Part shown: positions 510 through 18,174 of the stretch, in pieces | How the letters are laid out: the number at the start of each line of letters is the position of its first letter | Position numbering within the stretch: position 1 is the stretch's first letter | Virus record (IMG/VR): IMGVR_UViG_3300035180_003568 | Direction: 5' to 3' (one strand) | DNA from: an uncultured virus (IMG/VR IMGVR_UViG_3300035180_003568) | Lineage: Duplodnaviria; Heunggongvirae; Uroviricota; Caudoviricetes | DNA length: 20,000 bases | The notes under the pieces: generated by a model | What the model saw: the letters and a program-made list of their open reading frames with translations, nothing else | Databases searched by the model: none | What the model was told of the DNA's origin: nothing | Position numbers and translations under genes: made by a program

Positions 510-865
510 AATACCTCTCCATTATATGCTAAATAATTAGTCCAAACCGATAATCGCATTATTTTTCGTTTAATAGAAATTTGTCTACTTTTAATTCCTC
601 CAGACGGGCTGCTAATTGAGCAATATCTTTTTTTTGATAGGAGAAGTACGTTTTCATGAATGAAACTTTCGATATCTTTTGAGCAATCTGATAAAAGTTT
701 AATGGGAACAAGCTTTTTCGCACTTTCTCGGCGGCGAGAAAGATCCTGATGTCTTTCCACCAATATGAATAGGAGAAAATACATCTAATACATAAGTCAT
801 AAAACACAATATTATTGTGCTAACAATAATAACAAAAAGATCATTCTTTATTGTTTGGCTTTCAT
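506..865 (-). pseudogene. Probable frameshifted membrane-anchored small protein
   Basis: ATG at 865 overlaps the nucleotidyltransferase TGA and TGA at 506-508 overlaps the next ATG; span is exactly 120 codons. Reads MKAK / (T)IKNDLFVIIVSTIILCFMTYVLDVF...KCEKACSH / KLLSDCSKD...NGEVF with two compensating shifts. Confidence 0.45.
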
Positions 866-1989
866 TTGATCAATGACTGTTCAATCAAATTAATGCATAA
901 TTTATCTATCTTCTCGCGATCAGGAGAATGTGGGAGAATTTTGCAAGAATTGTAAAGTTCATTCAACTGAGCGTCTTCAGTATCAGCAAATTCGATTAGA
1001 CGATCATATGTCCACGCCCCGTTTCTAATGGCAAGTAGCTCTTCTCTGTCTGGTCGTTTTACAATAACTTTCCCAGTCGTTAAAATTTCTCGACACATTC
1101 TGATTAATCGAACTAAATGATAAGCATGCTTGGTGTCATATCCAAACTTAGCTTCAAGAGCGGCTCTTTTTTCATTACGATTTTTCCTCCACTCTTGATA
1201 TTTATCCCACTCTTTCTTGGAGTTAACATAAGCTCGTTCTTTCTGCATAATCTCCACAAAATTATCGTTTAGACCAATTTTGCGAGCCGCCGCCATCCAG
1301 TGTTCATCCGAAGTGATTTTTAGTTCACCCAACATATCTGACATAACAGAACGAATGTTAATCTTGGCAGATTCTTCTAATCCTTCCATAAAGTCAAATT
1401 GAAATCTATCTAATTCCTTCTGGATCTCGGCTTGAGCCGCCAATAACTGATCTTTTGGAATCTCCGGTTGCTTTGGGAGCCCTAAACTTTCTCTGGTTGG
1501 AAGTTCAGTTGGAGGATTTAATAACCATCTACGATGGAGCTTGATTCTATGCAACTGAGAAACTGCATAACCAGTAAATGTATGTTTTATTTTTTTAGAT
1601 AGGAAAATATCTTTATTCTCTAATAGGGTCCTACCCAAAGGTGAAACTACAAAATGATCATCATCTGATGTATGCAATACCTCAATGATATTAGGATTGC
1701 AGTCTGATGCAAGGTTAATGAATTTTCTAACATCATAAACTACTGCGTCTGGATCTGGTGCTTTTAATTCTGCTTGCTCGAAACGCTTAAAACTGCTAAA
1801 AAAATATTCTTTAGGAGGAATAGTTACTCCTTTAAAGTCTTCGTCAGAAGTATCTGTGTTCGTACCATAAGCGTGGGATCCATGACGGACCAAAAGAATA
1901 GTTCGGTCCGTAATCCATGAAATGTTTTGGCTGCGCTTAGCCATCAAGTCTAATACTGGGTGTGACATAATAATTAATCTTTCTGACAA
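862..1989 (-). CDS. Pol-beta-fold nucleotidyltransferase, YcgL/RlaP-like
   Basis: GSHAYG..TDTSDED.KG motif, NPNIIE.L, YDTKHAYHLVRL and ELLAIRNG motifs typical of this family. Confidence 0.85.
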   Translation of the reverse strand: MSERLIIMSHPVLDLMAKRSQNISWITDRTILLVRHGSHAYGTNTDTSDEDFKGVTIPPKEYFFSSFKRFEQAELKAPDPDAVVYDVRKFINLASDCNPNIIEVLHTSDDDHFVVSPLGRTLLENKDIFLSKKIKHTFTGYAVSQLHRIKLHRRWLLNPPTELPTRESLGLPKQPEIPKDQLLAAQAEIQKELDRFQFDFMEGLEESAKINIRSVMSDMLGELKITSDEHWMAAARKIGLNDNFVEIMQKERAYVNSKKEWDKYQEWRKNRNEKRAALEAKFGYDTKHAYHLVRLIRMCREILTTGKVIVKRPDREELLAIRNGAWTYDRLIEFADTEDAQLNELYNSCKILPHSPDREKIDKLCINLIEQSLIK

Positions 1990-8057: not shown

Positions 8058-8500
8058 TTGCCACACATCGCCAAGAAAACTATAGCCCATAAAAATGTAA
8101 GGTGAATAATTTGGTCAACTGCAATCATTAATATCTTTCCAAGAGGAGTTGAAATGAATTCAATGAATCCTTTCTTTGGATCATTAGGCGCTTGCATCTC
8201 GGCAGGTTTTCTAATATATTTTGCCCAAAAGAAAACTGGTAAATATGTATCCTCAATAAAGTGAGACCAAAATAGGACATTCAAGCCAATTAACCATGCC
8301 CACCAAGAAAATCCTAATGCCCACATGGCAGGAACAAAACCAGCAGTATAGATTAAACAATGACGGGCGCGAACCTTGGGATTATTATGCTTTGCCATCG
8401 CCTCCGCGTGAGTTTGACAAATCCAGTCCACAAAAAAGTGAATGAAAGTGAACAGGGCAAATAAACCGCCAGCTAACGCCAACTTATGTAACATATCCAT
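8054..8500 (-). CDS. DUF3307-like membrane protein
   Basis: H.FVDW..QT..AMAK, H.LIY, SHF.ED and DQI.H motifs with hydrophobic helices; GGAGG SD. Confidence 0.8.
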   Translation of the reverse strand: MDMLHKLALAGGLFALFTFIHFFVDWICQTHAEAMAKHNNPKVRARHCLIYTAGFVPAMWALGFSWWAWLIGLNVLFWSHFIEDTYLPVFFWAKYIRKPAEMQAPNDPKKGFIEFISTPLGKILMIAVDQIIHLTFLWAIVFLAMCGK

Positions 8501-8592
8501 TATGACTTCCTCCAGAATTTTGTCTTATCCTTTTAGTTTGATAAGCTTGCAAAATTCCATCATACATATCTTGTAAGTCTTCAAATTCCATT

Positions 8593-12950: not shown

Positions 12951-13478
12951 TCACTTAGGCGATATGGTCATATGTATGATTTTTCCTTCCATTTGGATTT
13001 GGGATACTTTTGGAGATAATTTTGATAATTGTTCAATAACAATTTGAAGTTTTTCTTTTGCCAGCTCTGGATGAGTAATTTCTCTCCCATAATGTTTAAT
13101 GGTAAATTTAACGTGATTACCATCCTCTAAAAATCCTCTGGCTTGAGAAATTTTGTGATTCAAATCATGAATATCAATATTTGGTCTAAATCTAATTTCT
13201 TTAATTTCAATCTGCTTTAAATTCTCTTTAATTTCAGAAAGCCTTTTCTTTTCATTATACTTAAACTTTCCGTAATCTATAATCTTACAAATAGGCGGTG
13301 AGACTTTCGCATTAATTTCAACCAAATCCAGCCCAGCATCTTTTGCCATTTGCAATGCTTGATGAGTTAACATCACGCCGGGCGATGAGCCATCTTCTAA
13401 TACCACTCTAACTTGCGGTACTTTAATTTGCCAATTAATACGAATGCGATTTTGAATGTTAGGTGTTTTCTCTTGCAT
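12951..13478 (-). CDS. infC: Translation initiation factor IF-3
   Basis: RIN..I....VRVV, GLDLVEI....PPICKIIDYGKFKY, KEIRFRP.ID.HD, FLE.G..VK, GRE..H, EGK.I.M...P. Confidence 0.97.
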   Translation of the reverse strand: MQEKTPNIQNRIRINWQIKVPQVRVVLEDGSSPGVMLTHQALQMAKDAGLDLVEINAKVSPPICKIIDYGKFKYNEKKRLSEIKENLKQIEIKEIRFRPNIDIHDLNHKISQARGFLEDGNHVKFTIKHYGREITHPELAKEKLQIVIEQLSKLSPKVSQIQMEGKIIHMTISPK

Positions 13479-14683: not shown

Positions 14684-14756
14684 TGGCACCCCTAGGAAGA
14701 GTTGAACTTCCGCAATCGAGTTTCGTAGACTCAACGCCAGGTCCGCTGGTAGGGGC
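14684..14756 (-). tRNA. tRNA-Arg(ACG), non-canonical fold
   Basis: GCCCCTA/TAGGGGT acceptor, CTACGAA loop, GGAAG-TTCAACT-CTTCC T arm, GCCA end. Confidence 0.85.
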
Positions 14757-14765
14757 GTGCTAATT

Positions 14766-14852
14766 TGGAGTCCCTAGTAGGAGTTGAACCTACAATGAGC
14801 TTTCGCTCCCTGGTTTCGTAGACCAGTGCCATATCCATTTGACGATATGGAC
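14766..14852 (-). tRNA. tRNA with ACG (Arg) anticodon and long variable arm
   Basis: CTGGT-CTACGAA-ACCAG, GAGC-GAAA-GCTC variable hairpin, GTAGG-TTCAACT-CCTAC, TCCA end. Confidence 0.85.
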
Positions 14853-14935: not shown

Positions 14936-15067
14936 TTATTTTTTCGTTACTATTTTAGATACGATCAACTCTGGGTACCAGTATGATAAAAATAAAATGT
15001 TTCCATCTTTATCTAATTGGACTTTATATCCAGTTTTAATCAAATCTTGAATTTCTTTATTATTCAT
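14936..15067 (-). CDS. Small hypothetical protein, 43 aa (MNNKEIQDLIKTGYKVQLDKDGNILFLSYWYPELIVSKIVTKK)
   Basis: ORF fills the tRNA spacer; ATG directly follows the tRNA-Glu CCA. Confidence 0.55.
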   Translation of the reverse strand: MNNKEIQDLIKTGYKVQLDKDGNILFLSYWYPELIVSKIVTKK

Positions 15068-15611: not shown

Positions 15612-15678
15612 TGGTGATTTGTACGGGAGTCGAACCCGTGCTGAAAGTCCAGAGGACTAACCGCTAACCTAACAGACC
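15612..15678 (-). pseudogene. tRNA-Glu(TTC) pseudogene lacking the 3' strand of the anticodon stem
   Basis: 67 nt; acceptor, D and T arms and CCA present; TCTGGA-CTTTCAG joins directly to the T arm. Confidence 0.75.
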
Positions 15679-16004: not shown

Positions 16005-16517
16005 ATGACTACACGTAATACAGAAGAATTATTAACTTTAGCCACAGAATTCGAAGATCAAGCAGCTAACTTTGTTATTAAAAAAGCAAAGAAAGACTCA
16101 GCGGACTCAAAGGCTAAAGTTCGTAATCGTGGAAAAGTTGTTTTTCCTGCCGAAAGCTCCAATGTTAAGGACAACAAAGATCATTTTCCTATTAATGATG
16201 CTGATCAAGCCAGAAACGCTCTCGCCAGAGCCGGTCAATATTCAAGCGTACCTTCTTGGTACAATGGCTCATTGGAAAGCCTAAAAAGCGCCATTAGTCG
16301 CGCCGTTCACAAACATTATCCTTCAATTGGTAAGGAAAAGAAATCATCTTTTATGAGCATGTTAGCCAAAGAAGCCGGTCATAAATTCGAGGCTCCCCGT
16401 ATTGTTCAACTATATAATATGCTAAAATCTGAACCAAATGAAGAAGACAGAAAAGAAATTAAAAAGTGGATTGAAGAAGAACAGGCGAGATTAGACAAAC
16501 TTCGCTCTAAGAAATAA
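16005..16517 (+). CDS. Hypothetical protein with DUF6582-like motif
   Basis: HFPINDADQARNALARAGQ; GGAG SD; only intact plus-strand gene. Confidence 0.75.
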   Translation: MTTRNTEELLTLATEFEDQAANFVIKKAKKDSADSKAKVRNRGKVVFPAESSNVKDNKDHFPINDADQARNALARAGQYSSVPSWYNGSLESLKSAISRAVHKHYPSIGKEKKSSFMSMLAKEAGHKFEAPRIVQLYNMLKSEPNEEDRKEIKKWIEEEQARLDKLRSKK

Positions 16518-16979
16518 ATCTTCTAATACATAAGTGGGATTGATCTTCTTAATATCTTCCTGAGAAGGTTTTGTATCGTAGAAACACACATATCCTTCTT
16601 CCGGATATTCTTTTTCATATACATACCAACCGGTTCCTTCTGGACCATTCACGGTATGTAATGCTATCACTTCTATAGTATCCATATTTTCTTCCGAATT
16701 AGCTATCTCAGCTAAAACCTCTCCATGACAATCTTGCGGGGAACACCAACAACCTAAAATCTTTCCTTTTAACTCCGTTTTAGCGGCTTCTAGCAACCAA
16801 GGCGTTGCCATTATGTAATTTCTAAAACATTGAATGGCTTCTTCGCGAGTCTCTACAATATGCTCGGCAGCCGTCCCACCCCGATGAGTAAAAGGATTGC
16901 CCCATTTAGAAGGTCTTCCTATATAGACATCATAATGATCTTTTTTACAATGAACAACAAATTTTTTATATTCGGTCAT
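16491..16979 (-). CDS. DUF4326 domain protein
   Basis: VYIGRPSKWGNPF...LKGKILGCWC.P..CHGEVL. Confidence 0.9.
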   Translation of the reverse strand: MTEYKKFVVHCKKDHYDVYIGRPSKWGNPFTHRGGTAAEHIVETREEAIQCFRNYIMATPWLLEAAKTELKGKILGCWCSPQDCHGEVLAEIANSEENMDTIEVIALHTVNGPEGTGWYVYEKEYPEEGYVCFYDTKPSQEDIKKINPTYVLEDLFLRAKFV

Positions 16980-17227: not shown

Positions 17228-17623
17228 TCATTGGTGTAAAATGATTACATCGGAATTTGTAATTGCATCAAGAGTCTCAAAAACTCTTCTATCCTCTTCC
17301 TCTTGAATGTCTTTTATTGCCAGCAACTTCATTTTCTTGAAAAGAAAGCGCTTCGCCCGCTTAACTAAAGATTCTGGTTTTCTTTTTCGCGGAGGCTTTG
17401 GGTGACATTTAGTGCAAAGAAACTCTAAATTGATTTGCCTATTATTAAGACGATTACCATTAATATGGTGGATATGAATACAATAAGTTATCTTGCATTA
17501 TGCGCAAGATTTAGCAATACCAGATTCAATCATCGCCCTACGTAAGCATGACGGATTTTCTAATTTGCCAGATAATCTATTGAATAGTAATATTTCTTTC
17601 CAATGAATCTTACTCTTCTTCAT
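17228..17623 (-). pseudogene. HNH endonuclease with in-frame TAA
   Basis: MKKSKIHWKEILL...LRRAMIESGIAKSCA*CKITYCIHIHHINGNRLNNRQINLEFLCTKCH...; TAA at 17500-17498 inside the CxxC. Confidence 0.85.
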
Positions 17624-17624
17624 A

Positions 17625-17708
17625 TGGTGTCAGAGGAGGGACTTGAACCCTCACGCCTCGCGGCACTGGCTTCTTAGACCAGCGTGGCTGCCATTACACC
17701 ACCCTGAC
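17625..17708 (-). tRNA. tRNA-Leu(AAG)
   Basis: CTGGT-CTAAGAA-GCCAG, long variable arm, A73, CCA. Confidence 0.9.
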
Positions 17709-17710
17709 AT

Positions 17711-17795
17711 AAACAATTGAGAATGAAAAGTCTTTACTCTTTTATTCCTAGCCTATCCGGGTGTAAAGATGAACCCTTTAGACTACTGATTGTTT
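17711..17795 (-). ncRNA. Candidate structured spacer RNA (copy B): three-way junction with kissing loops
   Basis: AAACAAT/ATTGTTT, TAGTCTA/TAGGCTA, GGGT/ACCC, GAAT-AAAAG/CTTTT-c-ATTC; loop segments TCTTTAC and GTAAAGA are complementary. Confidence 0.5.
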
Positions 17796-17882
17796 TGGTA
17801 CCAATGGTGGGACTCGAACCCACACGGGATTACTCCCAACAGCTTCTGAGGCTGCCGCGTCTACCATTTCCGCCACACTGGC
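17796..17882 (-). tRNA. tRNA-Leu(CAG)
   Basis: Canonical class II cloverleaf, CTCAGAA loop, ACCA. Confidence 0.93.
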
Positions 17883-17885
17883 ATT

Positions 17886-17963
17886 TGGCACTCGGAAAGG
17901 GTTCCGAACCCTTAAACCACAGATTCTAAGTCTGTGAGGTATGCCAATTCCCATCACCCGAGC
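17886..17963 (-). tRNA. tRNA with TAG (Leu) anticodon, short variable loop, G73
   Basis: ACAGA-CTTAGAA-TCTGT, 5-nt variable loop, AAGGG-TTCGGAA-CCCTT, GCCA. Confidence 0.85.
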
Positions 17964-17997
17964 ACGATACTCTGATTATATCAGAATATCACCAACC

Positions 17998-18174
17998 TTA
18001 CTTGTTGATTTCCTTCATAATTTGCTTTAGAGTAACAATCTTATCAGTAATTGTCCATAAAATACGCATAGTTACTTTTGACCAGGCATCAATAAGATCC
18101 TGAACATATAAGGAAAGCTGCTCAACTGCCTCAACTTTTTTCTCTGCCGCCAAAGCTCTTTGCTCCATTTCCAT
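17998..18174 (-). CDS. Small coiled-coil hypothetical protein (5' end possibly frameshifted)
   Basis: MEMEQRALAAEKKVEAVEQLSLYVQDLIDAWSKV...; frame open upstream to SKEDLIKRA, with an out-of-frame ATG just before. Confidence 0.55.
   Translation of the reverse strand: MEMEQRALAAEKKVEAVEQLSLYVQDLIDAWSKVTMRILWTITDKIVTLKQIMKEINK

Follow-up and report, generated by a model that had tools for sequence, protein, structure and literature searches.

A predicted three-way-junction RNA between two tRNA-Leu genes of a large uncultured phage: a modest small-RNA candidate

The tRNA-Leu trio and its 87-nt spacer

The whole stretch of DNA analyzed here (20 kb, hereafter the window) is part of a large uncultured phage that was found in microbial-mat and sediment sequencing runs; the contig to which it belongs measures 75 kb. 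PHROG matches in the window comprise rIIA, rIIB, a translation initiation factor, HNH endonucleases, and a nucleotidyltransferase, and the nearest GenBank rIIA is 42% identical and belongs to a 462-kb uncultured phage. Two of these genes lie near the tRNA array: the translation initiation factor (12951-13478, minus strand; PHROG E = 2e-44), which we read as an IF3 homologue, and the nucleotidyltransferase of 375 aa (862-1989, minus strand; PHROG E = 2e-66). ARAGORN called eight tRNA genes in the window, all eight on the minus strand, and the RNA considered here is therefore the reverse complement of positions 17709-17795. The Leu trio runs along this strand in the order Leu(tag), Leu(cag), Leu(aag), with 3 nt between the first two genes and 87 nt between the second and the third. 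In the direction of the tRNA genes, the features of the locus are:

17966..17990, minus strand: perfect 11-bp palindromic hairpin around TGATATAAT (17983-17975); z = −4.71, with 0 of 200 shuffles as good
17886..17963, minus strand: tRNA-Leu(tag), first of the Leu trio, 3 nt upstream of Leu(cag)
17796..17882, minus strand: tRNA-Leu(cag), 87 nt, with encoded CCA; its 3′ end sets the 5′ end of the element
17709..17795, minus strand: inter-tRNA spacer, 87 nt, consisting of the closed fold (17711-17795, RNA nt 1-85) and a 2-nt AU tail (17710-17709)
17625..17708, minus strand: tRNA-Leu(aag), whose 5′ RNase P site would set the 3′ end of the element
17490..17510, minus strand: terminator-like hairpin with a T-rich tail, the likely end of the transcription unit

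The motif TGATATAAT sits 12 nt before Leu(tag) and, by our reading, would be an extended −10 promoter of the Leu operon. A −35/−10 promoter scan, which needs a −35 match, called no promoter on the minus strand, TGATATAAT included. The palindrome at 17966-17990 may combine a promoter with an overlapping operator-like inverted repeat. Downstream of the trio, a 41-aa ORF (17498-17623, minus strand) starts 1 nt after Leu(aag). Within the spacer itself, neither a promoter nor a terminator was called.

The tRNA coordinates bear out the boundaries given in the initial annotation, with the element starting at the first nucleotide after the CCA of Leu(cag) and ending 2 nt before Leu(aag). The 87-nt spacer contains no start codon by our reading of its sequence, and the element is A/U-rich with repeated AAAG and CUUU motifs. 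No second copy was detected within the 20-kb window, where blastn returned only matches with E of at least 0.15.

Predicted fold and chance controls

The spacer RNA is predicted to fold into a closed three-way junction (−18.2 kcal/mol, z = −2.66), the minimum free energy (MFE) structure being the same as the centroid. As had been described from the sequence, the ends of the element pair through 7 bp, RNA nt 1-7 (AAACAAU) with nt 79-85 (AUUGUUU), and two hairpin arms are present in the predicted MFE fold. The junction strands measure 3, 0, and 2 nt. The predicted parts are:

17789..17795, minus strand: 5′ strand of the closing stem, AAACAAU (RNA nt 1-7), directly after the encoded CCA of Leu(cag); pair probabilities 0.74-0.96
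17749..17785, minus strand: arm 1 (RNA nt 11-47), with a 7-bp stem, an internal loop, a 4-bp stem, and the 10-nt loop UCAUCUUUAC; pair probabilities 0.88-1.0
17763-17769, minus strand: UCUUUAC (RNA nt 27-33), within the 10-nt loop of arm 1
17720..17748, minus strand: arm 2 (RNA nt 48-76), with a 5-bp stem, a bulge, a 6-bp distal stem, and an AAAG tetraloop; pair probabilities 0.77-0.96 (proximal) and 0.54-0.74 (distal)
17731-17737, minus strand: GUAAAGA (RNA nt 59-65), in arm 2, its outer bases within the distal stem of the MFE fold
17711..17717, minus strand: 3′ strand of the closing stem, AUUGUUU (RNA nt 79-85), placed by the predicted fold and its pair probabilities

A pairing between two loop segments, 7 bp long, had also been proposed, and this claim stands in part. 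UCUUUAC and GUAAAGA are exactly complementary, but in the MFE fold GUAAAGA is only partly a loop, the final 2 bp of the distal stem of arm 2 being made with its outer bases. Opening these outer pairs costs 4.2 kcal/mol (from −18.2 to −14.0) against about −5.2 kcal/mol for the 7-bp duplex, so the kissing form is computed to be roughly isoenergetic with the MFE; it is plausible and is not favored by the computed energies. Formed instead as a plain nested helix, this pairing would be highly unfavorable (−8.5), and inter-arm pairing, if formed, would therefore be a pseudoknot, as the initial annotation had it. The structure favors the tRNA-sense strand: the plus-strand sequence folds less well (−15.4, z = −1.5, versus −18.2, z = −2.66, for the minus strand), and the three G·U pairs of the fold exist only on the tRNA-sense strand. 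A fold of the whole 342-nt precursor failed to recover even the tRNA cloverleaves and is uninformative on the spacer.

Two chance controls were applied to these features. The first consisted of 3,000 dinucleotide shuffles of the spacer; the second, a natural control, of 87-nt windows from both strands of the same 20 kb, of which 7,929 were kept after 37 of 7,966 had been dropped for overlapping the spacer. Ends were counted as closed when at least 6 bp formed within 3 nt of both ends. The frequencies obtained were:

energy at or below −18.2 kcal/mol: 1.3% of 3,000 shuffles; 21% of 7,929 natural windows
ends closed by at least 6 bp: 1.4% of 3,000 shuffles; 1.2% of 7,929 natural windows
inter-hairpin complement of at least 7 nt: 0.2% of 3,000 shuffles; 0.24% of 7,929 natural windows
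closed ends together with a complement of at least 6 nt: 0 of 3,000 shuffles; 0 of 7,929 natural windows

Equally good folding of shuffled sequences had been named in advance as evidence against the proposal, and it was seldom encountered (3 of 200 shuffles in a separate set, and 1.3% of the 3,000, at or below −18.2 kcal/mol). Among 1,659 GC-matched natural windows, 8.7% fold at or below −18.2 kcal/mol, and fold energy alone is ordinary for this genome. The joint statistic of closure and complement is post hoc, having been framed after the features were seen. Sequences with two perfect 7-mer complements made up 1.9% of 5,000 shuffles and 3.6% of 5,690 natural windows, and short complements are easier to obtain here because the sequence is A/U-rich with repeated AAAG and CUUU. 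The three-armed feature is real and its shape is unusual; the shape of the element is probably not accidental, and the statistics are not proof of function.

These controls bear on an explanation that we consider quite possible, short of probable, namely that the spacer is functionless: insertion/deletion filler at a hypervariable tRNA site, transcribed and then excised as a by-product, with a fold owed to chance and to A/U-rich low complexity. The share of GC-matched natural windows that fold as well, the frequency of two 7-mer complements in natural windows, and the lack of a clear energy advantage for the kissing form are consistent with such filler. Against it stand the joint occurrence of closed ends and an inter-arm complement of at least 6 nt, seen in neither control set, and the preference of the structure for the transcribed strand.

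Related phages and database searches

Three syntenic loci (L010, L011, and L012) were found via the protein anchor P0012, and shorter contigs covering the site came from sequencing runs X2, X3, and X4. Across five related genomes the site between the Leu tRNAs holds 3, 3, 8, 87, or 1,290 nt, a spread that fits the functionless-filler explanation. In L010 and L011 the order is Leu(tag), AAT, and Leu(aag), followed by Glu, a 141-aa gene, Glu, Arg, and Arg. L012, a 433-kb phage, has a Leu(cag) homologue with the anticodon tag, then 1,290 nt containing two ORFs, then Leu(aag). A 5.4-kb contig from run X2 has the L010-type arrangement, and we read its inter-tRNA letters as an acceptor end, CCA, and a 3-nt gap. 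A 156-nt contig from run X4 joins 17710 to 17794 with only TATA between them, giving an 8-nt spacer, and differs from the window at 1 position in 74 nt matched to Leu(aag) and at 3 in 78 nt matched to Leu(cag). One contig from run X3 skips 17710 to 17795, with matches to the flanks only.

Four relatives retain Leu(aag) together with a Leu tRNA upstream of it, and the element is missing from each of them (3, 3, 8, and 1,290 nt at the site), so that the check on conservation of the loop pairing found no carrier of the element among the four with the same flanking tRNAs. Judging from the X4 contig, the element is either there in full or missing, with limits no more than 2 nt from the tRNA ends. 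The sequences compared mark the space between these Leu tRNAs as a hotspot of insertion and deletion and the element as accessory. Relatives keep the same tRNAs in its absence, so the flanking tRNAs evidently do not require it to mature.

Several origins for the element were considered and set aside. A deletion remnant of the L012 cargo ORFs would be expected to resemble them, but no significant similarity was found (best match 10 nt, E = 4.9), which also counts against the functionless-filler explanation. A clean mobile insertion, with a terminal inverted repeat and a target-site duplication, does not fit either: the flanking letters common to the window and the 8-nt version amount to no more than AA and AT, and there is no duplication. 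Nor is the closed fold shared by other inter-tRNA spacers: six other gaps (in the window, L010, and L012) proved to be ORFs, single hairpins, or unstructured. Same-strand tRNA junctions elsewhere in the clade (the window, L010, L012, and the X2 and X4 contigs) measure 3-11 nt or are larger gaps mostly with ORFs, and a few shorter tRNA gaps lacking an ORF are also present.

Other observations concern what occupies such gaps. The two ORFs between the two Leu tRNA genes of L012 (8510-9730) resemble, by eye, an O6-methylguanine-DNA methyltransferase (PCHRV motif) and an AlkB-type dioxygenase, and may be candidate DNA/RNA-repair cargo in a tRNA array. Other gaps in the tRNA cluster are taken up by ORFs of 41-43 aa, at 14936-15067 and 17498-17623 of the window (both minus strand) and at 11395-11536 of L010, where the product reads like a membrane peptide; the 87-nt spacer contains none of this kind. 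The window Leu(cag) (17796-17882, minus strand) and the L012 Leu(tag) (8414-8501) are close homologues with different anticodons, which looks like an anticodon switch within a phage tRNA array.

Searches for homologues of the element itself covered several collections. With Rfam 15 at gathering thresholds, the window returned tRNAs only. At E ≤ 10, cmscan of 17500-18050 gave 10 matches, with no ribozyme, riboswitch, or tRNA (RF00005) model in the spacer; the only matches touching it were sroE (17.3 bits, gathering score 51) and Ysr209 (18.4 bits, gathering score 59), both of which we take as noise because they straddle a tRNA. No homologue was found among GenBank phages, where blastn with the spacer as query (50,697 phage records) produced no more than chance matches at E of about 9 inside protein-coding genes, and none in IMG/VR scans or JGI metagenome contigs. 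GTDB genomes yielded nine chance matches of an 18-mer, none extending beyond 28 nt, and a DNA search of two related 430-450-kb phage records yielded a single 18-nt match (E = 0.06). A single-sequence covariance model gave a best E of 3.55 in five viral records and, apart from the element itself, of 0.39 in the window.

Attempts to reach the locus through its neighbors were likewise made. The single proteins at 16491-16979 and 12951-13478, used as anchors, retrieved no IMG/VR relatives, and tRNA-anchored DNA scans led back to the same contigs or to L001-L004, a Leu(taa) family of no relation, and to nothing else. The 141-aa tRNA-cluster protein has 44 relatives, the full-length ones at no more than 53% identity, on contigs of up to 472 kb; among the matches listed, its alignment search gave only distant loci without tRNAs, and tblastn against GenBank phages gave no match. 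Three DNA sequencing runs with the phage contain contigs identical to the window across the spacer, and this zero variation leaves no population signal; no RNA run containing the stretch turned up. There is likewise no covariation signal because no homologue was found. The element is thus an orphan in the databases searched, a finding that, together with its absence from every relative, is also what functionless filler would predict.

Candidate origins and roles of the spacer RNA

The size of the spacer and its place in a Leu array raise the question of a tRNA origin. We consider it improbable that the element is a decayed or aberrant type-II tRNA of this array whose cloverleaf was lost while its length and a 7-bp acceptor-like stem survived. 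The 7-bp terminal stem, the unpaired 3′ nucleotides, and the 85-87-nt length do match type-II tRNAs (87 nt for Leu(cag)), and the closing stem with the proximal stem of arm 2 amounts to 7 + 5 bp, analogous in our view to an acceptor/T-stem stack. The cluster also has degenerate tRNA-like genes, at 14685-14757 and 15612-15678, that ARAGORN reports at a lowered threshold only. In the spacer, however, ARAGORN made no call in any of five settings, including the lowered threshold (-ps80) and mitochondrial mode (-mt), and the Rfam tRNA model (RF00005) gave no match at E ≤ 10. Alignment to eight local tRNAs reached z of −1.3 to 2.84, which is chance level, with His alone exceeding 2 among the eight comparisons. 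The fold is also one arm short of a cloverleaf (three, not four), it has neither a T-loop nor an anticodon loop of 7 nt, and arm 2 is separated from the closing stem by 2 nt that have no counterpart in a tRNA.

Position likewise brings in catalysis. The initial annotation had entertained a tRNA-processing ribozyme, and a new self-cleaving ribozyme or cis-acting processing element, theta-like, could in principle release Leu(cag) at its 3′ end or Leu(aag) at its 5′ end. The element starts at the first nucleotide after the CCA, and a structured trailer would need an endonucleolytic cut. HDV-type ribozymes have further parts 3′ of P1, namely P2, which closes at the 3′ end, and the catalytic C in J4/2. 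In the HDV-like theta fold, as outlined in PMC10879173 and generally understood, a nested double pseudoknot is formed in which P1, starting at nt +1, pairs with an internal segment. Theta ribozymes are proposed to cut tRNA 3′ trailers. The same source places them within 5 nt of phage tRNAs with tRNA-Leu among the commonest neighbors, and reports them from gut phages of Bacteroidota and Bacillota hosts (PMC10879173). The element shares with them a start directly at the 3′ end of a phage tRNA-Leu, and differs in that its phage comes from microbial-mat and sediment runs and in that its sequence cannot form the nested double pseudoknot.

Whereas the HDV-type P1 partner lies in midsequence, the sole complement of nt 1-7 is here at the extreme 3′ end (nt 79-85), two nucleotides before the next tRNA, so there is no room for the downstream HDV parts. 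No Rfam HDV-type model matched at E ≤ 10, and the earlier remark that the fold does not match HDV was correct. A hammerhead-type or HDV-type core could not be accommodated by junction strands of only 3, 0, and 2 nt. These junction lengths, and the absence of a match to any Rfam 15 ribozyme family at E ≤ 10 (hammerhead, twister, pistol, hatchet, and the like included), are our grounds for rejecting every known class of self-cleaving ribozyme. Furthermore, relatives with nearly identical tRNAs have an 8-nt spacer in the place of the element. The proposal of a tRNA-processing ribozyme is weakened by these three lines together, since relatives mature the same tRNAs without the element, and we regard it as highly improbable.

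The purine riboswitch aptamer and the type III hammerhead have an architecture like that of the element, a closing helix with two hairpins whose distal ends can pair. The element differs in having no Rfam match and in its junctions of 3, 0, and 2 nt, which could hold neither a ligand pocket nor a catalytic core. It also has no expression platform, and a tRNA starts 2 nt later.

Tentatively, and short of calling it probable, we favor the reading of the element as a structured RNA module of tRNA size, specific to this lineage and set free during maturation of the tRNAs, in the manner of T4 RNAC and RNAD. We infer its transcription, excision, and stability, and any function, from the arrangement of the locus. 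The spacer would be cotranscribed with Leu(tag), Leu(cag), and Leu(aag), from the promoter-like extended −10 (about 17975-17983) to the terminator-like hairpin at 17490-17510. The RNase P-type pathway of tRNA 5′ maturation is universal, and a cut by RNase P at G1 of Leu(aag) would make the 3′ end of the element, leaving the AU tail. Maturation of Leu(cag) after its encoded CCA would make the 5′ end, presumably by an endonuclease because the trailer is structured. The released RNA of 85-87 nt would have both ends in a 7-bp helix and would perhaps be compacted further by the inter-arm pairing; with its ends locked in this way, it would resist exonucleases and persist, as T4 RNAC and RNAD do.

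We count in favor of such a structured RNA the agreement of MFE and centroid with high pair probabilities, the preference of the structure for the tRNA-sense strand, the closure at boundaries set by the tRNAs, and the inter-arm complement. The contrast with the other tRNA junctions of the clade, the all-or-none presence of the element, and the T4 precedent point the same way. Counted against it are the lack of a homologue, the absence from relatives, the ordinary fold energy, the A/U-rich repetitive sequence, the zero variation among runs, and the post hoc nature of the joint statistic, as well as a figure legend in a review according to which bacterial tRNA operons had yielded no report of a stable internal transcribed spacer (PMC8166272). 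The structured-RNA and functionless-filler explanations are close rivals, and as a new phage small RNA the element is a modest candidate and not a demonstrated case.

The T4 RNAs are about 120-140 nt long. Descriptions of RNAC and RNAD place them in the T4 tRNA region with a role unknown (PMC3014915, PMC9697503), and RNAC has been seen on Northern blots (PMC9697503). The likeness lies in a non-tRNA RNA, a predicted one in the case of the element, inside a phage tRNA cluster, on the tRNA strand and presumably matured from the same precursor. It differs in being flanked by tRNAs on both sides and in having no sequence similarity to any GenBank phage record (blastn, 50,697 records). A further comparison is offered by 3′ETS-leuZ of E. 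coli, described as an external 3′ spacer of 53 nt whose binding partners are Hfq and the sRNAs RyhB and RybB (PMC8166272). By analogy, the element would be a transcribed spacer cut from a polycistronic tRNA precursor that could act in trans; it differs as an internal spacer with a predicted compact fold and little single-stranded sequence.

Large phages carry long tRNA arrays, and the sequence between their tRNA genes is almost never annotated. If tRNA-sized gaps do encode stable RNAs that borrow tRNA processing, they would amount to a hidden layer of phage noncoding RNA, of which T4 RNAC and RNAD are decades-old unexplained examples. The element adds one candidate with an unusually tidy fold and, without relatives, alone neither proves nor advances this idea. 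More speculatively, and in our estimate unlikely, it could be the first example sampled from a new class of RNA cassettes, relocatable and of tRNA size, built as three-way junctions with an intramolecular 7-bp kissing contact, which would insert between phage tRNA genes, be excised by host tRNA processing, and act in trans (for example, as nuclease-resistant decoys). A self-processing variant of such RNA cassettes is possible.

The tRNA cluster holds other unusual genes. The degenerate sequence at 14685-14757 (minus strand), called Arg(acg), is 73 nt long, ends in CCA, and has an odd D-arm; that at 15612-15678 (minus strand), called Arg(tct), is 67 nt long, also ends in CCA, and follows Glu(ttc), a position that in L010 is taken by a second Glu(ttc). 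Neither of the two is detected by the Rfam tRNA model at E ≤ 1. In the unrelated IMG/VR contigs L001-L004, a CCA-ending tRNA-like sequence about 5 nt after Leu(taa), uncalled by ARAGORN, has an anticodon region that looks abnormal. A tRNA with the Arg anticodon ACG (83-88 nt) is kept in all three related phages, at 14766-14852 of the window (minus strand), 11537-11624 of L010, and 10442-10524 of L012, and by our reading has a long type-II-like variable arm, which would be unusual for a tRNA-Arg.
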